Below are positions 6,621 to 61,746 of a stretch of DNA of 64,000 nt, piece after piece. This DNA is from Rhizaria sp. SCN 62-66 (Eukaryota), in assembly GCA_001724265.1 (NCBI GenBank), contig MEDY01000191.1:1-64000 (forward strand), read 5' to 3'. The stretch's first letter is position 1. Each line of letters begins with the position of its first letter. The notes below the pieces were generated by a model. The model saw only the letters and a program-made list of their open reading frames with translations. It had not been told where the DNA came from and searched no databases. Made by a program: the position numbers and the translations under genes.

Positions 6621-7918
6621 ATGTCTGATATCGACAACCATGAGGTGATTCCTTCCGTGGACGCGCCAGAGGTCGAGTCGGCGCCTGCTGTCTCTGCCCT
6701 TGAGGCCGCTGACAGTGCCGCCGACGTCGCTGCCGAGCCTGCTGCCGCCCCTGCGCCCGCCTCCGCTGCGGCCGAGGAAGAGTCTGCTGGCCCGCGCACC
6801 CGCAGCGGCCGTGCCCGCACCTCCAAGGCCGCCGCGGAGCCCGCCCCCGTGACCCGCCGCGTCACCCGCGCGTCTGCCCGCAAGTCGGTCGGCGAGGGCG
6901 AGACCGAGCCCGCCGCCGCCTCCGCCGCGCCCGCCGCGCCCCAAACCCCCGCCGCGGCGCCCCGGTCTAGCAAGGCCGTTGCCGCGGCCGAATCGCCGGC
7001 GTTCAAGACCCCCGCGCGCGTGTCGTCGCCCGTGGCCGCGGCGGCCCGCTCGCGCCTCTCCATCGGCGGGTCCGCCGCCAAGCACGGGCTCCCCCTCGCC
7101 GCCGCCGCGGGGACCCCCGCCAAGAAGGAAGCTGCGACTCCCGCTAAAGCCGCCAGCCCTGCCAAGGCTGCGTCACCGTCGCCAGTCAAGAAGGCGCCCG
7201 CCGCCTCTGCCTCCACGACGCCCGCCAAGCCGGCCAGCCCCGCCAAGGCTGCGAGCCCCGCCAAGGCCACCTCCCCTGTCAAGGCCGCCTCTCCTATCAA
7301 GACCGCCTCCCCTGTCAAGGCTGCCTCTCCCGTCAAGGCTGCTCGGCCGGCCTCCGCGGCCGCCGCCCCCGCTGCTGCTGTGCCTAAGCCCTCCGCGGCC
7401 AAGCCCGCTGCCGCCGCCGCCGCGCGCCCCGTCTGGGGCGGCAAGTCCGCTGCTGCTGCTCCTGCCGGCGCGCGCCCCGCCTCGGGCTCAGCCGCAAAGC
7501 CTGCGGCCGCTGCCGCTGCACGCCCCTCGAGCTCCTTTGGCGGCTCCTCTTTTGGGTCCAAGCCCGCGGCCCCCAAGCCTGCCGCCGCTGCTGCTGCCAA
7601 GCCCGCTGCCCGCTCGACCTTCGGATCCGCGCCCCGCCCCTCGTCCGGCGCGGCCCCCGCCGCTGCGGCTGCGGCCAAGCCCGCCGTGACGAAGCCTGCC
7701 GCCGCCCCCGCCGCGAAGCCCGCGGTCCGCCCTAGCTCTGCCCTCGCCAGCGCCAAGCCCGCTGCTGCCGCTAACAAGCCCGCCGCTGCTAAGCCCGCTG
7801 CGCCTGCTGCTGCGAAGCCCGCCGCTGCGAAGCCCTTCGGGTCCTCCGCTGCCGCCAAGCCCGCTGCGGCCAAGCCCGTCGCGGCCGCCAAGCCCGCTGC
7901 TGCGGGCGCTGCCAAACC

Positions 7919-7965
<47 letters not shown>

Positions 7966-8465
7966 TCAGTGGCGTGAAGCCCGTCAGTGGCGCGAAGCCT
8001 GCTGCTGCTAAGCCTGCTGCCGCTGGCACTAAGCCTGCTGGTAAGCCCGCCGCCGCCGCCGCCGCTGCTGCTGCTGCTGCTGCTGCCCCGGTCGCCGCCG
8101 TCGCTGTCGTCGCCGTGGCCGCTGCTGCTCAGGAGGAGCCCGCTGCCGCTGCCGCTGCCGCCGCTGTTGAGGCTGAGGCTGAGGCTGAGCCTACTGAGGC
8201 CGAGACCGAGGACATTCACGCTGAGCAGCATGTCGAGGCTGCCGAGGCCGAGGCTGAGGCTGAGCCCGCCCCTGCTTCCAAACTCATCGCCCCCTTCGAG
8301 GAGGTCGAGGCCGAGGCCGAGCACGCCGAGGCTGTTGAGGCTGAGACTGAGCACGCCGAGGCTGCCGAGGTCCCCGTTGAGGAGGCTGAGGCCGAGGCTG
8401 CTGAGGCTGTCGCCGAGCCTGCCGAGGCTGATGTTGTTGCTGAGGAGGAGCCTGCTGCCGAGGCC

Positions 8466-8496
<31 letters not shown>

Positions 8497-8945
8497 CTGA
8501 GCAGGAGCAGGCTGAGCAGGAGCACGTTGCCGAGGAGCAGGCTGTCGAGGAGCAGGCTGTCGAGGAGCAGGAGCACCACGAGGAGGCGCCCGCGGCTGTT
8601 GCTGAGCAGGAGTACGAGGCTGAGGCCGAGGCCCCTGTCGAGGCCGAGGCTGAGGCTGAGGCTGAGCCCGCTCACGAGCAGGTCGCCCATGAGGAGGCCC
8701 CCGTTGAGGCTGAGGCTGAGGCTGAGCCCGCTGCTGCTGAGACTGAGGTCGCCCATGAGGAGGCCGCCCTTGCCGCGGCGGAGCCAGCCGCTGCTGCCGA
8801 GCCCGCTGCTGCCGAGCCCGCTGCTGCCGAGGAGCCTGTCGCTGACACCAAGGCCGCCGCCGCTGAGCCTGCGCCCGAGGCCTCCTCGTCCGCGTCCGGC
8901 CCCGTCGAGGTGGCGGCCGACGAAAACGAGACCGAGGAGTGGTGA
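6621..8945 (+). CDS. Low-complexity orphan protein: basic Ala/Lys/Pro-rich repeats (SPAK/SPVK, AAKPA) followed by an acidic Glu/Ala-rich half
   Basis: Long ORF with coding-like codon usage, starting at ATG 6621 just after a likely 3' splice site (ccgtag). Ends TGA, followed by AT-richer UTR. Confidence 0.8.
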
Positions 8946-9693
8946 GGCGCGTGTGTGGCGCATGTGGCGCATGTGGGGCGCGCTGTACAGGGCACGAAGA
9001 CTGCTCTGCGACGCGCTTCGCACGCGAGACACTGTGCACTTTCTCGCACCTAGTCAGTCTGTAGTTCCACGCCGACATGATATGACTTTCATGCGGCTTG
9101 ATTTTGCTTCAATTTCCCGGCTTTTTACCTCCTACTCGTCTTCTATTGTGCTTTTGCTTTGCTTTGTTAGTTTGATGATTGACTCTGTCTTAGTTTGTTT
9201 GTGTTAACGAGGCCATGGCCAGCCGCCTTGCATTCCCGACTTCGCCGCGCAGCAACGCGCTGTGCTGTGTCGTGTCGCTGGAGATAGATGTGCGGCGGGA
9301 GTAGAGAGAACAGGTATTAGAGCGACGGCATCGGCAGCAGCATGTGCATGGGTGTGCTCGTGCCGTTTGTTGAAGTGCCTCCTTTCATGTTCCTTTTGAT
9401 TTCTAAGATTTTCTCAATAAAAACCTCGAACTAGTTTACAATAACCGATTGTATAAGTCGCGTCTTGGTATGACATTTTTGTTTTTCATGTTATTATCGC
9501 TATTGACGAACGAATGTATCCTGTGGGAGTTAACGCGTGTCGTGCACGAGCTTCGCGAAGGGGCGAGCTGCCTCCCCCGTGCCCGGTCCGTGAGGTCCAG
9601 TCAATGACACCTTAAAAAGGCTTGAACATTGCCAGCTGTCCGTCAGCGACACTGTGCATCGCCTTTTGCACTTTAACTTTGCAGTTTAGATAT

Positions 9694-12475
9694 ATGCCTC
9701 GCTTTTGGGTTGATGACGATGTCGCCCAGCTTATTGCTGAGGCAGGACGCCTTTTCAACCTGCAGTGCCTTACGACCGCCGTCGCGGGACGCATGCCGCT
9801 CGACAACGTGCTTCTCCCTCGGCCTCCGCAGCGCAGTACTTCGACTGCTCACGCGCAGCACTTTGCACCTCCGCTGCGCCCCGGCTCGCTGGTGCCGCCT
9901 GCCGCAGGCCGCACGCCGTCGTGCCCCGGCCGCGCCCTGGGCCTGCAGCCATCGGCGCTTGACGACCGCGCCTTCTCCCACGGCGGCCACCACGGCGCGT
10001 TCGGCGCCTGCGACGACGACGACGGTTTCGCGGACGTGGACGCGCACCCCGAGGAGGAGGACGCCTTCTCGGGCCCCGCCCCGCTGCCCCGCAACGCCTG
10101 CGACGTCGCGCGCCTGCTGACCGAGGCCGTCACCGCGCCCTTCCCGCTGCGCCCGCCTTCGCCGGTCTTCGCGCACGCCGCCCCGGCCGCCTCTCAAGGC
10201 GCTGCGGTTGCGGGCGCCTCTGCGTCCTCGTCCTCGTCGACCGCGTCGCAGGCCGCCCCAGGCGCGGGCACAAGGCCCACGCGCACGTCCTTCGCCTCGG
10301 AGGACGCGCCGGCGGGCCCCGCCGCCGCGGCCGCCGCCACGGCCGCCGCCGCGGCCGCCGCGACGGTGGCGTGCTGCAACGATCTTGCGTGGCGCATCGC
10401 GCGGCTGGCGCTGACGCCCGACGCGCTGGAGCAGCTCGACGAGAGCGGCTGGACGCCGCTGATGCACGCCGCACACGCCGGATCCGCGCCCGCGGCCGCG
10501 CTGCTGCTGGCGGCGCGCGCGAGCATGTCTGTGCGCACGAAGCATGGGTAGACACCGCTGATGCTGGCGTGCCAGGGCGGGCACGCGCCGACCGTGGCCG
10601 TTTTGCTGCAGGCGGGCGCGGACCCGCGCGCCTGCGACCACGAGGGCGTCACCGCCATGCACTTTGCCGCCGAAGTCTCCCCCTGCGCGCCCGCCGCCGC
10701 CGCCGTCGCCGTCGCGGCCAACACACAGAGCGCGCGGGGCGGCGGCAACATGGCCGGCTGCAGTGCGGGCAACGGCAGCACGCTGCACCACGCGACGCTC
10801 TCAAGCCACAGCGCGACCCCAGCTACGACTGCGGCGGCTGCGGCAGCGGCCAGCACGGCGGCCTGCACCGGCGCGGCACGCTGCGTGACGCTGCTGGCCA
10901 ATGCGCGCGCCAACACGGACGCGCGCGCGGGCTCCGGCGCGACGCCGCTGCTGCTGGCCGCGCAGAACGGGCACGCGCGCGCGGTCCAGGCGCTGCTCGC
11001 CACGGGCGCGCTGCCAGACCTGCCCTTCGAGGCCGCCGCGCCCGTCGCCGCCGCGCGCAACGCGCACAACGCGCACGGCGACATCGCCGCGACTGCAAAC
11101 GCGGACAGGGCTCTCGCAGCGAGCGCTGCGGCGGCGACGGTCGCGCTGCCGTCGCTGGTCGTGTACACGCCCATGCACGTCGCGGCCTCAGGGCCCGGCT
11201 GTCCCGGCTCCGGCGCCGCTTAGCCCGCGGACTCGGCGCACGCGCTTGCGCTCGCGGGTGCGTTGTCGGGCGAGCAGGCATGCGCGCACGGGACCTGCGC
11301 GCGCCGCTGCCGCAGCTGCCGCCGCGCGCTGCGCCGCCAGCGCCGCCGCGCGCAGCGCCGCCGCGACAGCAGCGCCGAAGGCAGCCTCGTGTCGAGCGCC
11401 ACGGCCCTGTCGGCGTTCGGCGACTCGATGTCGCAGTCTGTCGCCGGCTCATCCCTGGTCGGCACCTGCACCTGTGCCTGCGCAGCACGCACGGCGGCCG
11501 GCGCGCTCCCCGCCGCCGGCGCCCGCTTGCCGCCGCTGCTGCCGCAGCCGCCGGCGCTGCAGTCGCACGTTCACGCGCATGAGCACGCGCACGCGCACGG
11601 GCATGGGCAGCCGCTGCTGCCGACGGGTCTCGAGTCGGCGCGGAGCGGCCCCCCCGACGCCGGCCTCCGCCCGGCGACCCTGCTTTTCCCCGCGCCCGGC
11701 CTCCGCCTTGCCGCCGCCGTCCCCATGTCCGCCGTCCCCGCGTCCGCCGCTGCGGCCGCCTCCGCCGCCTCTGTTGCCGACGGTCCAGTGGCGCCCGCGC
11801 CGGGCCCGGTGGTGCTGACATCCGGCGGAGCGCGAGTGCGGCCTGTCGCCAGCGCCGCCGCCAGCACCACCGCCGCGGCCTCGCCCCTGACGGCCTCCGG
11901 CGCGCTCAGCGGGGCGTCGCCGGCGCAGTCGAGCGCGTCGCGGCTCTCGGGCGGCGCGTTATCGGCCTCGTGCAACAACCTCGCCGGCCTCGGCCTCAGC
12001 GCCGCGGGCGCAGTCTGCGTGTGCGGCGCCGCGGCGGCCGGCGGCGGCCAGGGCGGCGGCGGGTCGCTGTTGTTGTTGTCGTCATCATCGTCGTCGCACT
12101 CATACTCGCAGCCGCAGCTCAACCACCGCGGAGGCTCTTCGCTCTCTGCCGCCGCCGCCGCTGCCGGGGCCGTGGCGGCGCCGCTGCCCGCGGTCTCGGC
12201 GGCGGCCGTGGTGCGCCTGCTGCTCGCCGCGGGGCTCAACCCCACGACTGGAGCCACGACCTTCACCGTCTGTCCCGATGGTGATAGTGACGGCGAAGAC
12301 GGCTTCGACCTCGGCCGCCGCCGCCGCAGCGCCAGCAACGCGAGCAGCCACAGCCTCAGCCACAGCCACCCCGACATCGACACTGCCGCGGCTCTATTGC
12401 GCGCGCTCGGCCCCAGCGCTGGAGACAACAACGCCGGCGCCAGCGCTGGCACGGGCGCCGTCGCGAGCAGCGGCA

Positions 12476-12509
<34 letters not shown>

Positions 12510-14564
12510 CAGACTCTCGGCGCTGTGCCAGTGGCTGCAATGGCTGCGCCAGCGCCCGCGCGCGCCGCCGCTGCCGACGGCGTCGCCGCTGCACGTCGCC
12601 GCGCGCTTCAACTTGCCCGACGTTATCTCGGTGCTGCTGCGCGCGGGCGCCTCGGCGCTGGCCGACGCCAAGCTCTGCTGGGCCGATGCCAGCTGCAGCG
12701 CGCCAGAGATCTCGCCCGCCGCTATGGCAGCGCTCGCCGCGCACCGCAGCAGCCACGGCCCTCTGCAGACTGACGCGAGCGCCAATACAAGCGTGGACCA
12801 GACCCAGTCTCAGTCCGCGGCTCATCCTTCGGCCGCGCCGCTGTCGGCGCCCTCGCTGTCGCCCGCGGCCTCTGCCGCGCGGTCCCAGGCCTCGCAGATC
12901 TTGTCGCAGGCGCCGCCGCTCTGGCCGTGCTCCTGCGCCGCCCGCGGCTACGCGCCACGGCTGCCCAACGCCGCCGTCACCGAGGGCACGATGGTGGCGC
13001 TCACGCCACTGCAGTGCGCGCTGCTCTCGGGCAGCCGCCGCTCCGCGCGCGCGCTGCTGCGGGCCGGCGCGCTTATGCCGCCGCTGCTGCTGCAGCCGAG
13101 CCTGACCGCCTCGACGGCCCTGCTGGCGCTTCACAGCGGCAGCGGCGCCTGTGCTGCCGAGAGCGCTTGCGCCTGCGCCTGCGACCCGCTGTGGTGGGCC
13201 GTTGCGCAGGCCGCCGCGGGCGCCGCGAGCCGCAGCCGCACGAAGCGCGCGCGCGCGGCCACGCTTGCGGGCGCTGCCAGCGATGTCGCCGCTGCCGCCG
13301 CTGTCGTCGCGAACGCTGCGCACGCCGCCGCCGCCGCCGCTGCCGCGGCTGCTGTGGGCGATGCGATCGAGGCGGACGCACCTCACGGGCACGTGCACGC
13401 GGGCGCTGTGAGTGCTGTCGCGTCAGGCGTCGCGTGCGCCACCGCCATGGCCGGCACCGTGGCCGCGCGCGTGCGCGACTGGGTGACCGCCTCCGCCGCC
13501 GCCGCCGCCGCCGCGTATGTCGCCGTGGCCGCCGCCGCCGCGGCCGAGTGCGGCGCCGACGGCTCTGGCCCGGCGGACAAGCGCGCGAAGCGGCTCAAGG
13601 CTGAGGCGCAGGGCTGGCTCGCCGCCGCCGTCGCAGTCTCGGCCGGCTGGGCCGCGGCGCGCATGCACGTCAAGGGGCTGCCCACGGTCACGCTGTTGTC
13701 CCACTCGGTTACCTTGGCGTCAACGGCCACTGGGACTGAGGACAAGCTTGACACTGCTACTGCTCCTGCCACTGCGGCTGCGGACGAGGCTGAGGCTGAG
13801 AGCAATCAGGCCCCGAGCGGTGCCGCCCCGGCCCTGGACGCGAGGCCTGTCACGACGACCGTGAGCAGCGGCGAGTCCGTGCGGCGCCTGAGCGACTGCG
13901 GCGGCGACTGCGACGCGAGCGTGCATGTGGGCGTCGACGGCGACGGCGAGGGCAACGGCAACCGCAGCGACGCCCAGACGGAGATCGTTGCCGTCGACAA
14001 CGGCGCGGACCGGGACGCGCGCGCCAACATCCGCAAGGGCAAGAGCGCGCGCAAGGCGAGCGACGCGGACGTGGACTGCGACGGCAACAACAACAGCAGC
14101 AGCAGTGCGTGCCTCAACGACGACGACGACGATGTTGACGACGACGACGTTGACGACGATGACGACGACGAGGACGAGGACACGACCGGCAACGACGACG
14201 AAGAGGACGACTACGACAGCGACGATGACGACCACGAGCCCTACAACAAGAAAAACAACAACAGCAGCAGCTTCTACTTCTACAACAGCAGCAGCAGTGG
14301 GGCTTACGGTCACACCCACGCGTTCGCGAGCTACAGCTTCAAGGGCGAGCGGACGCTGCTGTCCACGCCGCCCCGCAGCGACGTTTCCTGCGCCCCCTCG
14401 GTGGCCCCGTCCAACGCCACCTCGCAGGCGCAGTCGGCGTCGCTGTCGCCGCCCCTGGTGACGCCGCCGCCATCGCTCATCGCCGCCGCCGGCCCGCCCG
14501 CGCTCGCCGCGTGGGCGCGCGCCCCCATCATTGCAGCCGCAGCTGCAACTGCGCAACAGCAGTC

Positions 14565-14595
<31 letters not shown>

Positions 14596-14868
14596 CGGCG
14601 GACGCAGCTCAAGGTTCCTGCGCTGTTGCACTTCGCGCCTGCTGCCGCGCTGGCCGCGGTGTTGGCTGTCGCAGTGTCTGTGGAGGGCGCCGGCGCAGCA
14701 CTGGCGCGGGCTGCGCTTGAAAGCGTGACCGGACCTGCTGTGCAGTGCAGCGAAGTCAGGGCGACAGCTGAAGCCGCTGCGCAAAACGCGAAGCTGGCCG
14801 GGAATGATGATATTGCGGACGTGATTGATGTGTGGTTAAATCAGAATAACTTGATCACGCAAAATTAA
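9694..14868 (+). CDS. Large ankyrin-repeat protein (~1724 aa), read through two in-frame TAG codons (10549-10551 and 11221-11223)
   Basis: Three ORF-track pieces (9622-10551, 10561-11223, 11263-14868) are in one frame and separated only by TAG. Ankyrin motifs GWTPLMHAA, G*TPLMLAC, GVTAMHFAA, GATPLLLAA, SPLHVAARFN and TPLQCAL run across all three. Ends TAA. Confidence 0.85.
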
Positions 14869-15187
14869 CACTTTCTTTAACTGACTTTACTGCCTACCTA
14901 ATAATACACTTTTTCTTCAAGTCGACAGCGCGTCTTTTATCACAATTTGAGCCGACCTTTGTCGTCGTGGAGTGGCGGTCTGACTGTGGGTCCATTGCCG
15001 AAGTCGTGGAAGCTCTTGCTGACAGGGGCAAGCTCGCCTCAATTGAATGATCAGAATCCGTCTCTACCTCTCGTCTAAAGAAGTCGTTGTTTTGATATAC
15101 TTCCTGAGATGCGCTTTATTTTTTGATCATTTGCTGTTTCTTACATGCGCTTTGTCTATCCTTCTGTATCTTTTGTTCGTCATAGGT

Positions 15188-16534
15188 ATGTCCGACACCG
15201 AGGAGGTACCCGCCTCCGCAGTCGTCGCGCCTGCGACCCCCGTCCCCGCTTCGTCAACCCCGGAGCTTCCCTCCCTCCCCAAGGCGCCCGAAACTCCCTC
15301 CACGCACTCTGCGGCCGCTGAGCCTGTGACTCCCGCCGCTGCCGCTCCTGGCGGCGACGCCGCCTCGTCTCCCGCTCCTGCTGCCGCCTCAGCTGCGCCC
15401 GCTGCCGCCGCCGTCCCTGCGACCCCGATGTCCCCGGCCGAGCGTGCCGCGCAACGCCGCGCGAAGATCCTTGCGCGCGGCGACTCGCGCATGGCGTTGG
15501 TGACTGGCTCGATGAACGCCAACACGTTCCAGGTGAAGAACAGCGCGCCGATTCCCGCTGAGGTGGTGGCGGCCCACGCGCTGCCGACCCCGGCCGCGAT
15601 CGCGCCGCCCACGCCCGCGCCCGCGGCCAAGCCCGCCACCAGCAACGCTGCCGACACCGCCTCGGTCGAGGACGACGCCGACGCGGACTCGTCGTCGTCG
15701 TCAGCCGCCTCTGGCGCTGCTGATGCCGACAGCAGTCTGCGCCAGCGCAAGCCCGACGCCGCCCCCGCTGCTGCCAAGCCCGCGGCCGCCACTGCTGCCG
15801 CCAAGCCCGCTGCCGCGGCCCCCGCCGCCGCAGCTGCGGCCGCGCCGTCCGTGGTGACGCCCGCGCCGCTGCCGTCAGCGCTGACGAAGCCGATCCCCGC
15901 GCTGCGCACGTACGCGAAAGCCGAAACGGTGCTCCGTCTGCTGGGCATCTTCGTCCTCGCCTGCCTCTTCTCCTCCGACCCGGGCGCGCCCGCCGTGGCC
16001 GTCCCCGCCGCGGGCGCGGGCTTGGCCGCCGTGCAGGGCTACCTGGCTGCGGCGGGCGGCGCGCTGTCCTCAGCCGCCATGGCCATCCCCTTCGCCTCGG
16101 CGCGCCCCGTCGCCGCGCTCGTGATCCTCTACCTCTGCTACGAGGCCGCCGTCGCCTGGGTGCTGCGCGCGCTGCGGGCGCGCTCCAAGGCCGAGGTTGC
16201 GGCCGCCATGGCCGCTGCCAACGCGGCGCTGCCCCGGGGTCCGCTGATGGGCTCCCGCGCGGACCCTGCCGCTGCGACGCTGGGCCTCATGACGCCGATG
16301 GGCGGTGCGGGCGGCGCCGGCGGCGACGCGGCGGCGCTGATGAACCTGCTGGACAAGGCAGCCGGGCAGGCGGACGTGTTCACGGCCGGGCTGGGCAACT
16401 CGTTTGCGGGCAAGGCGATCGCGTGGTCCGGCACGGTCATGTCGACGTACAAGACCGGCAAGGCGCTCGTTGACGGCTTCTGCTTCCTCGTCGCCGTCAC
16501 CACCGTGCTCTCTGCCGCGCGCGCGCTCGTCTGA
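15188..16534 (+). CDS. GET2/CAML-like tail-anchored-protein insertase receptor subunit
   Basis: N-terminal basic motif AERAAQRRAKILARGDSRMALVTG resembles the GET2/CAML Get3-binding RRxKIL..R(L/M)..(I/V)TG motif. A disordered linker leads to about three C-terminal hydrophobic segments. Ends TGA. Confidence 0.65.
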   Translation: MSDTEEVPASAVVAPATPVPASSTPELPSLPKAPETPSTHSAAAEPVTPAAAAPGGDAASSPAPAAASAAPAAAAVPATPMSPAERAAQRRAKILARGDSRMALVTGSMNANTFQVKNSAPIPAEVVAAHALPTPAAIAPPTPAPAAKPATSNAADTASVEDDADADSSSSSAASGAADADSSLRQRKPDAAPAAAKPAAATAAAKPAAAAPAAAAAAAPSVVTPAPLPSALTKPIPALRTYAKAETVLRLLGIFVLACLFSSDPGAPAVAVPAAGAGLAAVQGYLAAAGGALSSAAMAIPFASARPVAALVILYLCYEAAVAWVLRALRARSKAEVAAAMAAANAALPRGPLMGSRADPAAATLGLMTPMGGAGGAGGDAAALMNLLDKAAGQADVFTAGLGNSFAGKAIAWSGTVMSTYKTGKALVDGFCFLVAVTTVLSAARALV

Positions 16535-17365: not shown

Positions 17366-20300
17366 ATGTCTGATCACTCTCCTAAACGGAACAGCCCTCT
17401 CACGGGCACTGCATCTTTCTCGGCCTCGGCTTCGGCTGAGCGCCCCCCGACTTCGGCCTCGTCTTCAACTCACCAGCACTTGGCCTCAGCCGCCGCGCAC
17501 TCGTCCTCGATGCCCCCACCTGCTCTTCTGCGCGCCGCGTCCCCGGCATTCTACTACTACTCGTCGATGCAGCCGCCGTCGCCGTCGCCGTCCACGGCGG
17601 CCTACTCCGCCTTCCCGCCCCCGCTGCTGCCCGCGCCCGCGGCCGACGCGCTCTTCGCTGAGCCGCACCACAGCGCCGGCGCGCTGGACCTGGCCGTGGC
17701 CGAGGCCGCCGTCGCCGCCGCCGCGCAGCACCAGGGCTGCGTGATGTGCTCGCCGCTCGCGCCCCTGCTCCCCGTCGCGCTGCCTGCTGTGCAGGCGCAG
17801 CAGCACAGCGCCTCGGTGACGGCGTACCACAACGGCCAGCAGGGCCAGCCGCAGCTGCAGGAGCCGCAGCCTGCGGGCGCGCCGCCGCGGACGCGCACGC
17901 GCGCACGCATCGTCATCTCTGGCCTGTCGCTGGGGCTGCCCTCGAACCCGGCCAACCCGGGCGCGGCCGTTTTCTCGCCCGACAACCTGCCCTCGCTCTT
18001 CCGCGGCGACCTGCGCATCCAGCCGCTGACGGACGCCGACACGGACGCGCTTCTGTCGATGCGCCCCTTTGCGCTGGGCAAGCCGCCCGCGCCGGGCGCC
18101 GCGCGGCCGAAGCAGTACTACTCGCGCGCGGGCCCCATGCTGCGCGTGCATGCGCGCCTTACGCCCGGCGCGTTCGACCTCTGCGCCGAGTACGGCGTGC
18201 CCGCCTTCGTGGCCGAGGCGCTCGACGCGTCCTTCACGCTCGCCATCGCCGCCGGCTTCGAGGCCCTCCACGACGCAGGCATCCCCGTCCTCTCGGAAGA
18301 CATCGTCGACGACAGTGCAGCTGCCTCGGGTGCCGATGCGCCGCCGCCGCGCCGCCGCCGCCGCGCCGCGCCGCTGCCGGAGCCGCTGCAACGTGACACG
18401 GGCGTGATCTTCGCATCCTCGTTCCCGGGACTCGAGTCGCTGGCCGAGGAGGCCGAGGCCGTGGGGCTGGACCGCGCGCGCGCCGCCGTGGCCGCCGCGC
18501 TGGCCGAACGCGCCGCGGACCCGCGCGTGGCGGCCGCCGACGCCGCCGCGCGCGCCGCCGAGGCCGCGCTAGGCCCCGCGCCCGACGCCGACACCGCCGC
18601 CCGCGAGGCCGCGGCCGCCGCGCGCGTCGAGACGATCTCCGAGGCCGAGGCGATGCTCGCCAAGGGCTACGCGGACGCGCGCGCCGCCGCGCTCGCCGCC
18701 ATCGACCGCGCCCACGGCAAGACCGGCGCCGGCGGCTCCACCGGCAGCTCCACCACGGGCACTGCTGTTGCAGTCGAGACCGACGCGGCGACGGAGGCGG
18801 TGCTGTACGAGTACAACCGGAAGCTGCTGTTCCGCGTGTTGGTGATGGCCAACGCACAGCTGGCCGAGCTGATCCGCGCGCGGGGGCCCAACACGCAGAC
18901 CAACGCTGCCTGCGCCGGCACCTCGCAGGCGCTCGCCATCGCAGAGGACTGGCTCGCCGCGGGCCGCTGCGCGCGCGTGCTCGTCGTCGCCGCCGACACG
19001 CCCACCTCGGCGCGTCTGCTGCCATACGTGTCCACGGGCTTCATGGTCCTGGGCGCGGCCTCGACCGTGGCAGCGCCCGCAGTGGCCGCCGCGCCCTTCG
19101 ACGTGCGCCGCAAGGGCATGATCATGGGCGCCGGTGCCGTCGGCTTCCTCGTCGAGACCATGGCCTCCGCGCGCATGCGCGCCCCGCACCTCGCCGGCGG
19201 CGGCTCCGCAACCGCGACTGCCGCGGCGGTGCCGGGCACGGGCACGCCGGCAGAGTGGTGCCCGCGCGCGGAGCTCCTGGGAGCGCACGTCGCCAACTCT
19301 GGCTTCCACGCCACGCTCATCGACTCGCAGCACGTCGCGCGCGAGCTCTGCGCCTTTGTCGAGTGCATGACGCGCGTGCACCGCGGCCGCCTGCTCCGCG
19401 GCGCGCGCTACCGCTCCGACGGCACCGTCGCCGGCCTCGCCGCCAACGGGCTCGCGGGCGTCTGCAATCTCAAGCCCGTCGCCGCCGCCGCGCTCGCCGC
19501 AGCCAAGCCCGCGCCCGCCGCCGCCGCTGCCGTCGGCGACGGCGCAACTGAGACAGCTGAGGAGGCCGAGGCCAAGAAGGCCGCCGCCACCAAGGCCGCT
19601 GCCGCCAAGGCCGCCGCGCTCGATGAGGCCGTGGCGGCGGCCGCGCTCGCCGCCGCCGCGCTGCCCAGTCCCGACGACGACGTCCCCGCCGCCGTCGTGG
19701 CCGCCGCTGCCACTGGCTCTGCCGCGTCCGCGCCCGCTGCCCCCGCGGACGAGGCGGCGGACGCGGCGCTGTTCGCGCCCGTGGTGGGCGGCTACTACCA
19801 CGCCCACCCCTCCGGCTACCCGGCCCCCAAGCCCGCCTGCGACGCGGCTGTCGAGAAGGCGCCCGCCGCCGCCGTCGCGTGCGCTCCGGCGGCCAAGTGC
19901 GGGGCAGAGATGCCCGCGCCGTCGCAGGTGACGTACTCGTACGCGGCCTCGGCGGCGCGCGCGCGCCTCTTCCGGCGGCGCCTGGCGCGGCGCCTTGCCT
20001 TTTTCACGCACGAGACTGGCACGGCGTCGTGCGCCAAGTCGGAGCTCATGGCGCTGGAACTCGCTCTGGGCCGCCGCGGCAAGGCCTCGACGCTCGTGTG
20101 CAACACCAAGGGACTCACGGGCCACGCCATGTCGGTCTCGTTCGAGGACGTCGCCGCCGTGGGCTCGCTGCACCACAAGCTGGCGCCGCCCGTGGCGAAC
20201 CTGGCGCGGCCCGACCCCGCGCTGGGCTCGGCGACCTACTCGCCCGGCGGCGCGCATGACCGCACGCTGGCGCTACGCTTCGCCGCCGGCTTCGGCTCGC

Positions 20301-22080
20301 AACTCATCTTCCTGCTCTTCAAGGCCTGGGACCCCAGCGACGTGGCCGACGCCGACGTGGTCGCCACAGCCTCGCCCGTGCCGCTGCCCGCGGCCGCCGG
20401 CCCCATGCTCTTCCCGGTGGTGGCGACTCAGCTCGACGACGACGACGTCGACGCCATCGCCGCGCTGCCGCCGCGCCGCCCCCCCACCCCGCCCGCCGCC
20501 AACGCGGACGCCGCCGCGGCCGCCGCGGCCGCCGCCGAGGCGCAAGGCCTGTGCCCGCAGGCCGAGCGGTATCCGCGCTGGCCCGCGCCTGACGCCGTCC
20601 CCGTCGCGGACGCAGCCTCTGTCTCCGGCGCTGCTGGACCTGTGCCTGCGTCTGCGTCTGGGGCGACTGAGGTCACGGACGCCGCGGAGGCCGCCGTGCT
20701 TGCGGTGATTGCGGGAGCGCCTCAGCTGACCGCCTCCCCGTCGCCATCATCGTCTCCGGCGCCCTCGCTGCCCGCCTCGCCCAGCCCCCGCGCGCCCTCC
20801 ACGCTCCCTGCCGCGCTCTCGGCCCACAGCCACAGCGCCGCCGCCGGGGCTGCCGCCGGAGGCGTCGCCGGTCTGTCGCTGTCGGCGCCCGCGTCGGGCG
20901 GCCAGCTGCCTCTGGCGGCCGCGGGCATCCCCACGGTGCCGTGGTACATCTCGCCCCGCGCCCTCTGCGCGCGCCACCGCGCCGCCGCCGCCGCCACGGC
21001 CCCGCCTGCCGCGGTCGCCGCCTACGCAGCCGCCGCCGCCGCTGGTTCCGGCTCCGGTTCCGGCTCTGGCGCGAGCTCGAGCGCGAGCTCGATGCACGTC
21101 AAGACGCTGAGCGGGAGCGGCGGGCGCGCGCCAGTGCCGCTGCCACCGTCGCTGCCCTCGTCGCGCAGCCACTCGAACATCGCCGGCATCGCCACCACCA
21201 TGGGCTTCAGTGCCAGCAGCGCCAGCGCCAGTGCTTGTGCCAACGGCAACAACAAGTACAACGCGTCGACCCGCGCCTCCGTCCATACCACCGTCGGCCA
21301 CGGCCACTCTGCTGCCGGCGCTGCCGCGGTGAGCCCGAGCAGCGCGTCGTTCAACGCCAGCGGTCCGGGCGTCACCATGGGCTCCGTGGCCACGCTACCG
21401 CCCCCGCGCGCGCACCGCCGCTCCGCGGGCGCCGCGGGCACCGGCTCTGCCGCCGGCGCCGGCGCCGGCGCCGGGGCCTTGGACTCGGACTCGGACGACT
21501 GCGGCGCCAGCGACGGCGGACTGCCCCGGTCCTCGTCCCGGTCCTCGTCGCCCTCGCGCGCCTCGGCCGCGTCGGCCGCCGCCGCCGTGAGCGGCCGTGC
21601 GCGGGTGACCGAGGTGGACGGCAGTGCGCTGGCGACGGCCATGATGACCGCCCGCAACGCTGAGGACGGTATGAACGCGCCCGCGGCGCCCGTGGCGGTG
21701 CCGGCTTCCAGCGCGCGCAGCGGCCACCGCAGCTTCGTGCTGGGCGGCGGCTTCGACGACGCATCGACCGCCACCGAGGACGACGGCCACGGCCACGGGG
21801 CCGGGGCGGACAACGACGACGTCAACGGCGACGATGACGACGACGGCGACGACTCGGCCGACAGCAACGGCAGCGCGAGCGGCGCCGCTGGCGGGGCCGC
21901 GAGCGCGCTGCCGCGGCACGGAATGACGCGGTCGAGCTCGCAGTCGCAGTCGCTGCGGTCCAAGATCGCACAGCCCTTCGTGGCCGTGTCGTCGCGCATC
22001 TCCTCCTTCCTCTCGACCTTCTCCGCGCCCGGGAACCCGCCGCTGTACCCCAACGGCGACGTCCGCGGCAACGCCGGCAA

Positions 22081-22118
<38 letters not shown>

Positions 22119-22231
22119 CGGCGATGGCGGTGGCCGAGGCTGAGCGCGCGGCGGAGGAGACGGAGGAGGCCGAGGCGCGCGCGGCCGCCGCGCAGGGCGT
22201 CTTCGGCTTCCACTCGAACCGCATCTGCTAA
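17366..22231 (+). CDS. Stand-alone beta-ketoacyl synthase (KS) domain protein with long low-complexity insertions and tails
   Basis: KS motifs DTGVIFASSFPG, MANAQLAELIRARGPNTQTNAACAG (catalytic Cys at 18911), APFDVRRKGMIMGAGA, FTHETGT (His at 20009), NTKGLTGH (His at 20123), LRFAAGFGSQ. Intronless 1621-aa ORF ending TAA. Confidence 0.85.
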
Positions 22232-27316: not shown

Positions 27317-28760
27317 TCACTCGACGAACGCGGCGACCTTGGCCGCCACCACGGTACTCACGCCCGCGTCGGCGGTGGCCGCGCCGACCGCCGCCGCCAC
27401 CGCCGCGCCCACCTCCGTCTCCACCTCGCCCGCAGCGCCCGCGCCACTGACAGCGGAGACTGCGGGCGAGCGAGTGAGCGAGAGCAGCGTCTGCGCGGCG
27501 GGCGTCACGGCGTCGGTGGCGGCGCCCGCGGCGGCCAGCGCAGCGGCGCAGCGGCGGTGGCCGCCCCATGCCGCGTGCAGCAGCGCCGTCAGCCCGCAGC
27601 GGTCGCGCGCGTCCACGCCGCTGCCGCCGCTCTTGCCGCGAGCGGCGTCGCCGTCGCTGTCGAGATAGGCGAGGAGGGCGGCCAACGCGCGGGTGCGGCC
27701 GGCGGCGGCGGCCACGGCGAGGGGCGCGCGGCCCGCGCTGTCGCCCGCAGCCACGCCCGCCGATACAGCAACGGCCGCAGCAGAAGCCGCCTCAGCGTTG
27801 GTCGCGGCGGAGGCGGAGGCGAAGGCGGAGGCGGAGGCGGAGGCGGAGGCGGAGGCGGAGGCGGAGGCGGAGGCGGAGGCGGAGGCGGAGGCGGAGGCGG
27901 AGGCGGAGGCGGAGGGTGGGGAGAGAGAGGAGGAACGCGAGAGAGCGCGCGGCGCCGGCGGCGGCCAGCTCGTGGAGCAGCGAGTGCACGGGCGCGGATG
28001 AAGATAGCAGCTGCGCCAGCGCCGCGGGCACCGAGCCGGCGTCGCCGAGGGTCACACTGCCGATGCTGCTGCTGCTGCTGCTGCTGCTAGCCTCAGTAAC
28101 GCCAGCAAGCGAGAGGGGCGCCAGCAGCGACGCCGCGTAGACGCCGTAGCTCGTGGCGGGGGCGGCGGCGGCGGCTGCGGCGGGGAGCGCGAGCGGCAGC
28201 GTGGGGAGCGTGAGGGCGGGTGGCAGCGCGGCCGACAGCGCGGCGGGGCCCGGCGCCGCGGGCGCGGACACCGCGGCCGCGGACGGCAGCAGCGGCGCGC
28301 AGGGCGGCGCGGGCAGCGAGAACGCGCGGCCGGGCACCATCGTCACGGCCGCGGCCGCGGGCTCGCCGCTGCTGCCGGCGCAGTTGCCGTCGCCGCCGTA
28401 GAGGGCGAGGAGGTCGGCGAGCGTGAAGCCGGCCTGAGCGGCCGCGGTGGGCAACAGCAGCGCCTGCAGGGTAGCCAGCACGGCCCCGTCGGCAGCGCGC
28501 AGCGCGGCGCGCGTCGCGGGGGATTCGTCGGCGTCGGCGTCATCGGAGTCGGCGTCATTAGCGGCAACAGCGGCGCTGGTGGCGTGGGTCGCGGGCGCCG
28601 CGGCAAGGAGTTCGGCGCGGTCGTCTGCTGAGAGGATGACAGCATCGTGAGCGGCAGTGGGGACGCCCAGTGCGGCAGCGCGAAGTTGGAGAGCGAGGCG
28701 CGCGAGCGCGACGGCGACGGGCGGACGCGAGCTGAGTGACTCGAGCAAGTTCTGGGACAT
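27317..28760 (-). CDS. Ankyrin-repeat protein with an apparent +1 frameshift at ~27915, at the edge of a hexamer microsatellite
   Basis: The upstream frame gives SLLHELAAAGAARSLAFLL. The downstream frame gives poly-(Ser-Ala), then GRAPLAVAAAAG and VDARDRCGLTALLHAAWGGHRRCAAALAAAGA. ATG-to-stop length is 1444 nt = 3n+1. Ends TGA. Confidence 0.7.
27806..27914. repeat. (GGCGGA)n microsatellite, ~18 units, encoding poly-(Ser-Ala) on the minus strand
   Basis: Directly visible tandem hexamer with one variant unit (GGCGAA). Confidence 0.95.
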
Positions 28761-29356: not shown

Positions 29357-30127
29357 TCACGCAGTCTTTTTCTTGCTAATAGTCGCAGTTACAGCCGCGG
29401 TACGCGAGGAGCGGCGCACGGGCGCTCCATCGGCGGTCTTAGTGGCCGCAGCGGCGGCCTTGGCGGCGGGGCGCGCGCGCTTGGCAGCGGGCGCGGCAGC
29501 AGCGTCGCAGGCGTCGTCGCAGGCGTCGGCCGCGCCGGACGCGCGGGCCTTGCCCGTCGCGCCAGCCTTCTTCCCCTTAATGTCACCGGTCTTTTCGCCT
29601 TCAGCAGCGGCTTTGGGGGCGGTTGCGGTGGCGGCGGCGGCGGCCTTGCTCCCCTTGCCCGGGAGGATGGCGATGATGTTCTCCAGCGGCCGGCCCAGCG
29701 CTGCGGCGTCAGCCGTCACGGCCAGCGGACGCTCCATCAGACGCGGGTTCGCGGCCAGCGCCTTGGCAACAGCGGCAGCCGAGTCCAGCTTGAAGGGCTT
29801 TTCGCGGAAGGCGGGCTCCTTGGAGCGCACCAGTGACGCCGCCGCAGAATCTCCGCCAAGCTTGGAGAGCACAGAAAGCAGCTATAAAAAGCAAATGAAG
29901 ACATAAAACGTGGTATTGTGAAAATAATGTGAATCCGTATGTGCTTTGTTAAAATATACTCAGAATCAGTCATATTGTTGTGCTGTGTGGTGACGAACCT
30001 GAGTCTCTGACAGAGGCTCCTTGAGATACTCTACGACAGTCATGTCGACGGAGCGCCCCTGCAGCGCAGCAACAGCCTCACGGCTTTTGGAGCAACTGGG
30101 GTTATGATACAAAACAAGCTTGGACAT
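29357..30127 (-). CDS. arsC: ArsC-family (glutaredoxin-dependent type) arsenate reductase with basic Ala/Lys-rich C-terminal tail; exons 30127-29999 and 29881-29357
   Basis: LYHNPSCSKSR active-site motif, VEYLKEPL, LVRSKE, NPRLMERPL and LGRPLENI all match the E. coli-type ArsC layout. One GT..AG intron. Ends TGA. Confidence 0.88.
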
Positions 30128-33553: not shown

Positions 33554-36547
33554 TCAGTCGTCCGCGTCGGCCTCGGAGTCGGACTCGGGCTCCGCCACCA
33601 GGAAGTCCCCCAGGCTCACGGTCACCTTGGCCGCGGCCACCGGGCTCGCGGCCTCAGTCGCAGAAGAGCTCGCACCTGCAGCTGCGGTCGCAGGCGCGGC
33701 CTCGGTCGCAGCAGCGGCCCCAGCGGCGGCAGCGGGCGCGGCAGCGGCGACGTCGTCCAGCGAGTCGCTCTCGATGGCACTGTGCTGAGCCGCGGCAGCG
33801 TGGCTCGGGGCAGCCGGCTTCACAGGCTCTTGCTTCGCGGGCTCCTGCTTGGCGGACTGCTGATTGGCGGACTGCTGATTGGCGGACTGCTGATTGGCGG
33901 ACTGCTGATTGGCGGACTGCTGCGGCCGAGCGGGCTCCTGCGACTTCGGCGCAGCCTCGGCCACCTTTGCCGCAGGCTTCGCAGGAGCCGTAGCAGCAGG
34001 CTTCGGAAATACAACAACAGCAGCAGCAGCGGTAGCAGCATCAGGCTTCGCATCCATCTCAGCCTTCGCAGCAGACGCAGCCGGGGTGTTGGCTTGCTGC
34101 TGGTGCTGCATCTGCGCGAGCCTCCGGGCGCGGTCGACCTGCTTGCGCGCGGCGGCGAGGCGCTCCTGAGCGAAGGCCAGCGCGCAGGCCGCCGAGCAGA
34201 AGCGCGTCCCGGGCGCCACCGCGGGCAGCCGCACGGCCGCGCCGTTGCCCGCGGCGGCCGTGGCGGCGATGTCGGCGATGTCGGCGTCGAGCGCAGCGTC
34301 GAAGGGCAGCCCCGCGGCAGCGGGGAACTGGCAGTAGCACTGGTAGCACGCGCAACGCCCAGCGGCGCCGCTGCTGCCACTGTTGCCACTGCTGCTGCTG
34401 ATGCTGCCACTGCTGCTGCCACTGCTGCTGCTGTTGGCAAGGTAGCGCAGGGGTACGCGTGCAGCCAGCAAGTCCCACAGGTCGCCCCCGCCGCTCCCCT
34501 CCTCGCCCATAGTGGCAGCAGCGGCAGCAGTCGCGGCGCTCGAGGCTGAGGCCGAGGCGGCGGCAGCGGCGGCGCCCGCAGCGACCGCGGCCGCCCGAGG
34601 CCCGCCAGGCTTGCCACTCGCCCCGCTCGCACTCCCATTCCCACTCCCACTCGCACTTGCAGCGGCGGGCGCGGCGGCGGCGGCAGCGGCTGCGGCCTGC
34701 GCGCCCTGAACCCACGCGGCGCGCGCGGCCTTGAAGTCGCTCTGCGCGGCGGCCTCGTCGTACTGGCCCCATAGTAACGACCCGGGCGCGGGCGGCGCGT
34801 CCTCCCCGTCGTACCCCGCGTCGCCGACACCGCCATTGCCGGGCCTGTCGTCGACGTCCGCGGCCCACTCGATGCCGTCGCGTACGAACCGGCCCTGCGC
34901 CGCGCGCGCCTCGCCCGCAGCGCCGCCGCCATAGCCGGCGCTGCCGTTTCCAGCGCCGTCGGTGTCGGCGCCGTCGGTGTCGGCGTCGGCGCTGGCCCGG
35001 GTGCCGCGGCCGTACCACGCGCCCTGCTGCCGCTGCTGCTGCTGGCTCGCCGCCGCGGCCGCCGCGGACGCCGCGGGCGCGGGCGCGGGCAGGCCCATGA
35101 AGGCGGCGCGGGCGGCGGCAAACTCGGCGTTGTTCACCCCTTCGTCGTACGACCCCCATAGTAAGGACCCGGGGGCGCCGCTCATGGGCGCAGCGCCACC
35201 GCTGCTGCTGCCGCTCTGGCTGCCGCTGCGGGCCGCGATGGTGCGCTCCCCGCCCTGCCCGGCCCCCGCCTTCGCCCCAGCCTGCGCCCCAGCCCGCGCC
35301 CCGGCGACGCGGGGGGCGATGGTGCGCACCCCGCGCGCGTCCGTGCTGATCAGCACCGGCCCCGCGCTGCCGCCGCTGCCGTGGCTGCTCGCGCCACTGC
35401 CGCCGCTATTGTTGGTGTTGAAGGCGGCGCGCGCGGCGGCGAACTCAGCGTTGTTGGCGCCCTCGTCGTATGTGCCCCATAGTAAGGACCCGGGGGCGCC
35501 GGGCGGCGGCGCGCGCCCGCCCGAGCTGGTGCTGGCCCCCCCAGGGGCGGGGGCTTGGCTGGCAGCGGCAGTCAAGATGGTAGCAGGACTGCTGCTGCTG
35601 TTGCTGCTGCTACTGCTGTTGCTGCTGGCGAGAATGGAGCGCGCTGAGGCGAGGCGGGCGAGCGCGGGCGCGGGCACGGGCACGGGTGCGGCGGGCGCGC
35701 CCGCGGCGGCAGCCACAGCGGCGGCCACGGCGGCCAGCGAGCTCGACCCCGATGGGGGGCGCGCCAGGGCGGGCTGCCGCTGCGGCGGCGGCGGCGGCAG
35801 CTGCGACTGGGAGCGCAGGGACGAGCCCGTCGCCACGGCCGTCGCCTGCTGCGGCTGCAACTGCTGCTGGGGACGGGCGACGCCCGAGAGCGGCCGGCCC
35901 GTGCTAGACAGCGGCCGCTCCATCGAGTACGCGGGCGCCTGCACGCGCCGCGCGCCCCCGGCCACGCCGCCGGCCCCGGCCCCGGCCCCTGCAGCGGCGC
36001 CGGCCCCAGCGGCACCGGCCGTGGCGCGCGGGGGACGGGCCGCCTGCGGCTGTGGCGACAACTGTTGCTGTGAAGAAAAGTTGACGGAGATTAGGCTACC
36101 CAGGTCGAGCTGTCCGCTGCCGTTGTTTGCACTGCCCGCGCTGCCAGCTGGCGCAGCGCCAGCCGCGCCCGGCCGCTTCTTGGCGCCGGCAGCGCCAGCA
36201 CTGCTCGCAGCGACTACGCCAGCGCCGGCGACAGGGGTTCCCGCACCCCGGCGCAATGCAGCAGCACCGGCGCCGCTGCCAGCAGCGCCCGCAGCGCCGC
36301 CCGCGCCGCCGCCGTTGGTCGCAGAGGCAGCCCAATAGACTCCGCCCTGCTTCTCGCGAACGCGCTGCCACTGATCCTTGTCGGCGCTCAGCTTTGCCCG
36401 CAGCGCCTGCAGCCGCGCATCCATGCGGTCCGTCTCCTCCTGCAGCGCCTGCAGCTGCGCAGACGGAGCTGCGGGTGCAGGCGCGGCGGCAGGCGCAGCG
36501 GCAGGAGCGCGGGGGCGGCCGCCTTGGGAAGGCGCCGAAGAGCTCAT
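33554..36547 (-). CDS. ZBBX-like protein: N-terminal coiled coil, three GSLLWGxYDE..F..AR..(F/W) repeats, C-terminal Cys-rich finger
   Basis: LQALQEETDRMDARLQALRAKL...YWAAS at the N-terminus. The repeats resemble, from memory, the ZBBX LLxGxFDExxSAxSFQEALxxWR motif. CYQCYCQF..RFCSAAC finger. Ends TGA. Confidence 0.6.
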   Translation of the reverse strand: MSSSAPSQGGRPRAPAAAPAAAPAPAAPSAQLQALQEETDRMDARLQALRAKLSADKDQWQRVREKQGGVYWAASATNGGGAGGAAGAAGSGAGAAALRRGAGTPVAGAGVVAASSAGAAGAKKRPGAAGAAPAGSAGSANNGSGQLDLGSLISVNFSSQQQLSPQPQAARPPRATAGAAGAGAAAGAGAGAGGVAGGARRVQAPAYSMERPLSSTGRPLSGVARPQQQLQPQQATAVATGSSLRSQSQLPPPPPQRQPALARPPSGSSSLAAVAAAVAAAAGAPAAPVPVPAPALARLASARSILASSNSSSSSNSSSSPATILTAAASQAPAPGGASTSSGGRAPPPGAPGSLLWGTYDEGANNAEFAAARAAFNTNNSGGSGASSHGSGGSAGPVLISTDARGVRTIAPRVAGARAGAQAGAKAGAGQGGERTIAARSGSQSGSSSGGAAPMSGAPGSLLWGSYDEGVNNAEFAAARAAFMGLPAPAPAASAAAAAASQQQQRQQGAWYGRGTRASADADTDGADTDGAGNGSAGYGGGAAGEARAAQGRFVRDGIEWAADVDDRPGNGGVGDAGYDGEDAPPAPGSLLWGQYDEAAAQSDFKAARAAWVQGAQAAAAAAAAAPAAASASGSGNGSASGASGKPGGPRAAAVAAGAAAAAASASASSAATAAAAATMGEEGSGGGDLWDLLAARVPLRYLANSSSSGSSSGSISSSSGNSGSSGAAGRCACYQCYCQFPAAAGLPFDAALDADIADIAATAAAGNGAAVRLPAVAPGTRFCSAACALAFAQERLAAARKQVDRARRLAQMQHQQQANTPAASAAKAEMDAKPDAATAAAAVVVFPKPAATAPAKPAAKVAEAAPKSQEPARPQQSANQQSANQQSANQQSANQQSAKQEPAKQEPVKPAAPSHAAAAQHSAIESDSLDDVAAAAPAAAAGAAAATEAAPATAAAGASSSATEAASPVAAAKVTVSLGDFLVAEPESDSEADADD
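33848..33921. repeat. 15-bp tandem repeat (TTGGCGGACTGCTGA, ~5 copies) encoding (QQSAN)n on the minus strand
   Basis: Directly visible; translates as QQSANQQSANQQSANQQSANQQSAK. Confidence 0.9.
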
Positions 36548-39918: not shown

Positions 39919-40757
39919 ACAGTGTCCGCTCACTTGATTTTTTACACTAGAATACAACATCATCAACTCGTACACATCATCTACTCAATCTTTTTGACGC
40001 AACCCAAAGTATCTTGCAAAGCTTCCTTGACAATAAACATTTTCACCCACAATACACAAATCTATTCGCAGTTTTCTTGATGTGCAACAAAATGTCTTTT
40101 GACAAACTACCTAAACTGAAGAGACACAACAAGATAATTGTGAAATAATTAAGCAATAATAGTATATTATTTTTTTATAGTTTTTATTTTGATTATCTTT
40201 GTTTTTTAAAAATATTTACATAAGTTCAAAGTTTTAGATAATTAAAATAATATATACACAGATACTCTTTTTATTATATGATTTTATTATTATGTTTTTA
40301 TTAGTTAGATATGTTTATGTCGCCTTTGTCAAAATCAACATCTGTTACCTCACCAACAAACTACAATTAAAACAATAATAAAAATTATTGTACAAATGAA
40401 AAAATCTATTAATGCCTTAATATTTTTAAACATTTAATATGACAATAAATACACTTAGGGAAGTTAAAAAATGCTTTATAATTCAGAAAAAATATACGTT
40501 GCGCGTTATAATATTTTAAAAGCTTTTTTCATCAATTAAAAAAATGTACAGTTTGATCACGGCGTTTTTTCTCAAGGCGGACTCCCATGATCTGAGTCGT
40601 TTAGGTTGATTTCACGGATATGCGCATGCGCAAGGTCGGAAAATAACGAAACTCACAGGGCTGGTTTATTGTCAATGTGACGATATCAGAAGTGTTTCTA
40701 CAAAATATTTGTTCTCTACGAAATGGAGTTAGTTTGTTTTTAACGTGGTCTACGAGT

Positions 40758-40800
40758 TGATCCAGCTGGGTGATCATCCAGCTGGGTGATCTAGCTGGGT
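40758..40800. repeat. Short imperfect direct repeat (ATCCAGCTGGGTG-like, x3)
   Basis: tgatccagctggg tgatcatccagctggg tgatctagctgggt is visible just downstream of the ATP12 stop. Confidence 0.7.
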
Positions 40801-40868
40801 ATTGGATTGGTACACGTACATGTATTGAGTATTACTGAGTATTATAGATAAATAAAAGAGCCTTGAGT

Positions 40869-61600: not shown

Positions 61601-61746
61601 CTGGAGTCAGCGGCGCTCCTATCCAGCCCGCTGCCAGTGTCAGTGCCGACAACGCAGGCCATGGCGTGTGGCTCTGCTCGGTCGAGGTCGTGCTCACTGG
61701 GGCGCTGCGGCAATGCGCACAGCCGGAGCTTTTCCCCCTGCTCTAA
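55645..61746 (+). CDS. MDC1/PTIP-like tandem-BRCT protein (~2033 aa) with a possible degenerate N-terminal FHA domain, read through an in-frame TAG at 57439-57441
   Basis: ORF pieces 55453-57441 and 57526-61746 are in one frame and separated only by one TAG. BRCT motifs: RVVVVFS, THLVSSGQLRTAKALAAL, LSDDWAARS, ERAYAFSLSDSL, WLHGCVLLL, AAGG, SVEVVLTGALRQ..PELF. Ends TAA. Confidence 0.78.

Follow-up and report, generated by a model that had tools for sequence, protein, structure and literature searches.

UAG as a probable, very rare sense codon in the GC-rich nuclear DNA of a probable cercozoan

In the first 64,000 nucleotides of contig MEDY01000191.1 (a 64-kb stretch of nuclear DNA referred to here as the window), UAG is probably a very rare sense codon in nuclear genes, with UAA and UGA retained as stops. 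The starting point was a TAG at 10549-10551 within an ankyrin-repeat gene, although it is the behavior of TAG throughout the window that is informative. The gene models, on which all UAG counts rest, describe the intron-bearing, GC-rich nuclear DNA of a eukaryote and comprise 19 complete and two partial genes (21 gene ends and 14,978 codons in total); RPL13 was excluded, as this gene at the left edge does not end inside the window. TGA closes 11 of these genes, TAA the other 10 and TAG none, and TAG occurs in frame five times among the 14,978 codons, in three of the 21 genes, making it the second rarest codon after ATA. Each in-frame TAG is followed by 271 to 1,438 open codons and, since every one of them lies at least 271 codons from a gene end, no TAG end has been missed. 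The in-frame stops are thus all UAG and the gene ends are only UAA or UGA, which are two of the defining features of a UAG-only code, seen here in small numbers.

The sequence that follows an in-frame TAG is unlike the sequence that follows a gene end. The 60 codons past each of the five TAGs are coding-like (+0.75 to +1.27 bits per codon, with a third-position GC content, GC3, of 0.83-0.93), whereas the 60 codons past all 21 TAA or TGA ends score -0.73 to -2.61 bits per codon with a GC3 of 0.32-0.58; GC3 is the cleaner measure, because the non-coding background of the coding score includes these same untranslated regions. Similarly, a six-frame scan of 2,995 stop triplets, blind to the modeled ends, passed only four, every one a TAG (three belong to the five sites and the fourth is a false hit in antisense), and none of the 785 TAA or 1,581 TGA triplets.

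The ankyrin-repeat gene (9694-14868, + strand) is a single exon that would encode 1,724 residues if TAG is read, with two in-frame TAGs and a TAA end. Pfam and an alignment to Protein Data Bank structures place repeat 1 at 10447-10545 (33 residues, with Trp at the x position, position 2), and repeat 2 follows at 10546-10644 (33 residues including the TAG; PF00023 model positions 1-32 of 33). TAG no. 1, with 1,438 open codons after it, is the x of G-x-T-P-L, position 2 of repeat 2. Repeats 3 and 4 occupy 10645-11025, the former interrupted by a low-complexity insert and the latter starting at 10936, and TAG no. 2 (11221-11223) sits in a low-complexity linker with 1,214 open codons after it. The original prediction had the bases and the spacing right, with two repeats of 33 residues, the TAG counted as one and repeat 3 starting at 10645, and its description of a perfect 33-residue array holds for those two repeats, but not beyond them, where repeat 3 is broken after its first helix by the insert of about 65 residues. 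It had also proposed checking whether the TAG column is a match state in Pfam, and this is so: PF00023 matches the read-through protein (TAG as X) at 73.1 bits against a cut-off of 21.1, the best stretch pairs residues 310-341 with model positions 1-32 of 33, and X312 is a match state without a gap. Furthermore, a 97-residue stretch across the X aligns without gaps to solved ankyrins such as 4rlv_A, and frame 0 scores best in 66 of 67 smaller windows along the gene. The protein resembles other PF00023/PF12796 ankyrins in its 33-residue period, its TPL motif and the ungapped match over the TAG, and differs from them in having a short, interrupted array within 1,724 residues of low-complexity protein; a single-sequence AlphaFold2 model, inspected for the helix-turn-helix-hairpin fold, was of low confidence (mean predicted local distance difference test score 47.8). 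A search for orthologs of the gene returned only same-species fragments and generic ankyrin proteins, and no ortholog from outside the species.

None of this regularity proves decoding by itself, because a TAG arising from TGG or CAG by a point nonsense mutation would leave the 33-residue period just as intact and the x column accepts any residue. The reading of this TAG as one residue is probably correct, but the argument from periodicity is weaker than had been claimed, and the case is carried by the contrast of gene interiors with gene ends window-wide. It might also be asked whether the TAGs are artefacts, either assembly errors or the contents of small introns, and for both there is something to point to: one apparent assembly slip at a microsatellite, and a 21-nt frame-keeping GT..AG stretch that ends at TAG 10551. 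Excising those 21 nt, however, would remove seven residues of the ankyrin hairpin, and the 17 modeled GT-AG introns are 117-239 nt long with a GC content of 0.33-0.56 and donor scores of 2.8-6.9, while among frame-keeping GT..AG introns that would remove a TAG the best donor scores 0.9 and no candidate resembles an intron in donor and GC content alike. The stop also falls at the same residue in predicted proteins from other assemblies, namely P0144 (four contigs), P0006 (one contig) and P0145 (one contig), of which P0006 is an allele without eight residues of an Ala run, and P0005, the piece between TAGs no. 1 and no. 2, is found on six contigs. This recurrence rules out an error confined to the window, although those contigs may share reads with it and are not to be counted as independent strains. 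An artefact is very improbable.

The remaining three in-frame TAGs are found in two genes toward the right end of the window. The first is a single-exon gene of 2,033 residues (55645-61746, + strand, TAA end) with a weak match to BRCT near its C-terminus (E 0.003, which falls short of the Pfam cut-off), and TAG no. 3 (57439-57441) lies in its Gln-rich tract with 1,434 open codons after it. The second is the 3' part of a gene for an AI-2E/TMEM245-like membrane protein (62325-63998, - strand; PF01594 by Pfam), which starts beyond the window and ends in TGA. In its gene model TAG no. 4 (63150-63152) lies about 35 residues past the membrane domain, and TAG no. 5 (63141-63143) comes three codons later, is directly followed by an ATG and has 271 open codons after it, and gene callers start a separate 271-residue protein, P0160, at that ATG. 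The closest ortholog (P0159/P0316), with 67% identity where the two align, has a single open frame and a tail similar in length and layout. TAGs no. 4 and no. 5 each start similar 9-nt units (63135-63152, - strand), and one local duplication is possible. Three other TAGs were considered as in-frame and rejected: those at 48725 (- strand, RING gene) and 29882 (- strand, ArsC-like gene) are intron acceptors, and that at ~32540 (+ strand, DUS gene) is intron interior.

As for the organism, both introns of RUVBL2 are confirmed by a spliced transcript from a relative (L001; ~90% identical over the long exon), and in RUVBL2 trees the window gene falls in a well-supported clade with environmental sequences, inside a group in which all the named sequences come from chlorarachniophyte Cercozoa. 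The group has Shimodaira-Hasegawa-like support of 97 (approximate likelihood ratio test, SH-aLRT; 77 rows) and 95 (SH-like; 110 rows), in a placement that comes from one gene and quick trees without bootstrap. The RUVBL2 of Lapot gusevi, another rhizarian, falls outside the group holding the window gene, and an assignment to Cercozoa (Rhizaria) from this sequence comparison is therefore only probable. The runs holding RUVBL2 are labeled as bioreactor, wastewater, activated-sludge and microbial-fuel-cell metagenomes, and near-identical pieces of the species are present in all four sequencing runs examined (X5, X4, X6 and X8); the genome and viral contig collections searched yielded no further DNA of the organism, with one distant match among the genome contigs. 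No named sainouroid was among the matches, and the 64-kb window contains no rRNA genes. L002, a 20,891-nt piece (1-20891) from a relative that shares the RUVBL2 clade of the window, has a GC content of 53% and four long genes in which no intron was seen.

The alternative that most needs weighing is a standard code in which the three genes are young pseudogenes or recent nonsense alleles and TAG ends are missing by chance. The ankyrin TAG would then derive from TGG and the Gln-tract TAG from CAG. Of the nonsense changes that one step can produce here, about 73% yield TAG, at which rate five TAGs out of five have a P of ~0.2. Trp also stands at the same column in the neighboring ankyrin repeat, two of the three genes carry two TAGs each, as dead genes would, and the more distant membrane-protein orthologs P0157 and P0158 end about 35 residues past the membrane domain, near the first TAG. 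A fourth, ankyrin-like gene (28760-27317, - strand) carries a frame change near 27900-27940, at a pyrimidine-rich run and a 6-nt microsatellite, which is either an assembly slip or a real frameshift. Yet this account needs three of 21 genes to have been broken by five stops without one frameshift in 12,951 bases. Neutral decay giving five stops would be expected to bring ~227 substitutions and, with an indel ratio of 0.03-0.1 assumed, 3-11 frameshifts; none is seen in the three genes, a single frame is kept in 166 of the 168 smaller windows laid over them and codon bias is fully kept past every TAG. The absence of TAG from 21 ends has a P of 0.009 if its share is 20%, as among the window's non-coding stop triplets, and of 0.13 if its share is 9%, the figure from 7 of 76 RUVBL2 ends called among 81 other eukaryote loci with redundant rows included. 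Nonsense alleles under a standard code are thus unlikely.

UAG might instead be a leaky or context-dependent stop, inefficient and read by near-cognate tRNAs with no dedicated tRNA, which would suit the extreme rarity of in-frame TAG and the finding that the base after the five TAGs is A or C and never G, while G follows 13 of the 19 true stops checked. The five 3' contexts, however, have no motif in common of the kind looked for as a sign of programmed readthrough, and with two TAGs in one mRNA the yield of full-length protein would be the product of two small fractions, which leaves little probability for this explanation.

That UAG is a sense codon remains the likely reading, with a number of observations weighing against it. 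The whole case has five in-frame codons behind it, of which the blind scan missed two, and to the bias of nonsense changes toward TAG, the frame change in the fourth gene, the early ends of P0157 and P0158 and the P of 0.13 must be added the lack of significant similarity between the tail of the membrane protein and that of P0159 (BLAST E 1.7; 312 of 1,000 shuffles reach the score). There are no tRNA genes in the window, and the relative L002 has three TAA ends and no in-frame TAG in 6,077 codons, although this count does not differ significantly from that of the window (P 0.33). If TAG were a free synonym of Gln or Leu, comparable synonymous steps would predict ~51 or 13 of them (156 for Tyr and 6.1 for Trp), and five are seen; likewise, use in three of 21 genes, and as about 1% of Gln or 0.5% of Leu codons, is far below the published cases, in which UAG supplies 6.5-32% of synonymous codons and occurs in 78-91% of genes (PMC11687900). 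Wide use is typical of those cases and is not part of the definition of a UAG-only code. Lastly, RNA was examined at 10549-10551, as had been suggested, and speaks neither way: over 9400-15100, near-identical pieces of the species from runs X5, X4, X6 and X8 lie on both sides of the TAG, including pieces from the poly(A) run X5 at 10252-10477, 10565-10968, 13004-13314 and 13730-14220, but among the 32 pieces listed of 3,716 none bridges 10549 or 11221. X5 also covers the non-coding 9400-9571, so DNA carry-over is possible.

Which amino acid UAG would specify, given reassignment, can only be put as rough odds, with glutamine tentatively first, tryptophan a possible second, leucine somewhat more doubtful and any other residue improbable. 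Glutamine is narrowly the single best bet on the basis of precedent, which favors Gln and, within Rhizaria, Leu, and of the Gln-rich site at 57439, which favors Gln with a likelihood ratio (LR) of 15.9; a TAG within a CAG tract, however, would be one C-to-T step away whatever amino acid it encodes. TAG no. 1 is the only one of the five in a domain that can be aligned, and there it falls on a variable column. The x position of the ankyrin repeat is its least informative column, open to nearly every residue, and cannot name the amino acid: across 149 proteins with 1,989 distinct G-x-T-[PA]-L-x-x-A repeats, its commonest residues are R (11.5%), W (10.5%), N (10.3%) and D (8.7%), followed by K (6.4%), Q and E (5.8% each), A (5.6%) and L (5.5%). 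The residues put forward originally, Gln and Leu, do both occur there, but Trp, which had been left out, is equally live: it is the second commonest residue of the column, ~17-fold above its 0.6% background in the window, and adjacent repeat 1 carries it at the same place as the TAG.

Tryptophan is the best fit to the ankyrin column and to the codon counts. It alone fits the counts without selection having to be assumed, and the five TAG seen against 92 TGG are in the proportion given by comparable synonymous G-to-A steps. These expectations assume equilibrium and no selection, neither of which would hold for a codon that is young or poorly read. As a synonym, TAG would account for 1.0% of the codons for Gln, 0.5% of those for Leu or 5% of those for Trp. 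Summed log10 LRs from a context model trained on the window plus the ankyrin column are 1.28 for W, 0.80 for Q and 0.35 for L, while Q against L on the four non-ankyrin sites gives a log10 LR of 0.08; a second context model, built from 149 outside proteins, could not predict the proteins of the window and was dropped. A nuclear code in which UAG means Trp and UAA and UGA stop, whether through a tRNA-Trp(CUA) or through adenosine-to-inosine (A-to-I) editing outside fungi and animals, is accordingly a tentative option, and if true would be a code not found in the literature searched, of which most subscription papers were outside reach and which likewise yielded no second rhizarian nuclear code.

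The same Trp signal admits an explanation in which UAG is still a stop and A-to-I editing of the mRNA turns it into UIG, read as Trp, like the correction of premature stops in fungi, with TAG gene ends avoided since editing would extend them. The enrichment of Trp at the ankyrin column and the agreement of the TAG count with the Trp-synonym expectation speak for editing as well as for decoding, and the A is predicted to be unpaired at four of the five TAG sites (P 0.86-1.0), in a prediction run without a control and in RNA whose GC-richness makes an unpaired A common. In Fusarium, 71 genes need UAG-to-UGG editing, with U preferred at -1 and hairpin loops (PMC11156358). The likeness to Fusarium and Neurospora (PMC11156358; PMC10776026) is that of rare in-frame genomic TAGs at Trp positions in otherwise intact genes, whereas UAG there is a normal gene end and editing belongs mostly to sexual development, in contrast to the 0 of 21 TAG ends here. 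Editing of this kind is described for filamentous ascomycetes, with no evidence for Rhizaria at hand. Run X5 has no A-to-G excess on the ankyrin gene (three of 16 differing places, in thin cover and mostly stemming from one divergent contig), no edited read was seen at these TAGs, although no listed RNA piece bridged 10549 or 11221, and Trp accounts for none of the 146 codons in the window's Gln-rich tracts. Editing is consequently even less probable than nonsense alleles.

If UAG is a sense codon, it would have been lost as a termination signal and would be read as one amino acid across the nuclear genome, with UAA and UGA kept as stops in about equal use. From the known cases, a tRNA with the anticodon CUA, which pairs with UAG and not with UAA, would decode it, and recognition of UAG by eRF1 would be weakened. 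Both a tRNA(CUA) and a relaxed eRF1 were argued for exLh and Iotanema (PMC5304391), and a tRNA(CUA) was found in two ciliate metagenome-assembled genomes (MAGs; PMC11687900). The extreme rarity of UAG suggests a reassignment that is young or inefficiently read, and a codon that is absent from gene ends and used about once per 3,000 codons may show reassignment caught early, at the stage over which the codon-capture and ambiguous-intermediate models part ways.

Nuclear codes in which UAG and UAA differ in meaning are rare, and the organism is probably a new example of them. One rhizarian case is in the papers found, namely exLh, a member of the Sainouroidea and an uncultured insect dweller known from its transcriptome, with UAG for Leu, UAA and UGA as stops, and 384 in-frame UAGs in 71 genes that end in UAA (56) or UGA (15) (PMC5304391). 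The window shares with exLh a UAG that alone is sense and ends that are only UAA or UGA (here 10 and 11 of 21), and both organisms are Rhizaria, that of the window probably so. They differ in that the one exLh coding sequence examined, rpl13a, is AT-rich, while here there are five UAGs and 21 GC-rich genes, and because of this AT-rich rpl13a the window organism is distinct from exLh; in exLh supplement 1, no RPL13, RPS21, RUVBL2, ATP12 or WAVE was found as a gene in common. Outside Rhizaria, two papers give UAG as Gln (NCBI table 15) in Iotanema spirale, Hartmannula sinica and Trochilia petrani (PMC5304391; PMC11687900) and as Leu (NCBI table 16) in TARA phyllopharyngean ciliate MAGs (PMC11687900), where UAG supplies ~8-32% of the codons for Gln or 6.5-10% of those for Leu (PMC5304391; PMC11687900), occurs in 78-91% of ciliate genes and leaves UAA to end 87-98% of those genes (PMC11687900). 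These codes also decouple UAG from UAA, with a tRNA(CUA) predicted there, but belong to other supergroups, and UAA dominates the ciliate ends while UGA accounts for half of those here.

The only precedent found for UAG as Trp is organellar and would be relevant if the residue is Trp. It is NCBI table 32, the Balanophora-type plastid code. The plastids of Balanophora and Thonningia read TAG as Trp (PMC10268348), and they are extremely AT-rich with bacterial-type release factors, in contrast to the nuclear, GC-rich DNA here. The recurrence of the species in activated-sludge and wastewater runs, together with long genomic contigs, opens tRNA(CUA) and eRF1 to direct look-up, and gene callers using the standard code already fragment these genes in public protein sets (P0005, P0144, P0155 and P0160).

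Several other features of the window can be recorded. ATA, the rarest codon, accounts for one of 285 Ile codons, where ~8 would be expected from the shares of CTA and GTA, and is rarer than in-frame TAG; L002 has 16 ATA in its 6,077 codons. The gene at 15188-16534 (+ strand) has no Pfam match, and its first ESM Atlas match, at a score of 0.87, is a GET2-like cluster in which 44% of the members are GET2, so that its product is probably GET2/CAML, although this is no more than a lead. A single-exon gene at 17366-22231 (+ strand) encodes 1,621 residues with long Ala-rich inserts and a weak match to ACP_syn_III (ketoacyl-synthase; E 1e-4, below the cut-off), and an intron-bearing ArsC-family gene at 29357-30127 (- strand; Pfam 22.1 bits, below the cut-off) has an Ala/Lys-rich tail. 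The gene at 45020-49517 (- strand) encodes a coiled-coil protein of 1,457 residues with a C-terminal C3HC4 RING, presumably BRE1-like. At an E of 0.01, Pfam matches none of four low-complexity proteins (6621-8945, 33554-36547, 36919-39918 and 42508-43844). In intergenic DNA at 40755-40805, beside the very AT-rich 40100-40520, a word of 10-13 nt was noted by eye in three near-copies. Finally, a eukaryotic RUVBL2 with 12 in-frame stops was encountered inside a Bacteriovorax (bacterial) MAG (L081, 112-996), which is probably contamination by the contig of a protist whose stop is recoded, one that would be ciliate-like.

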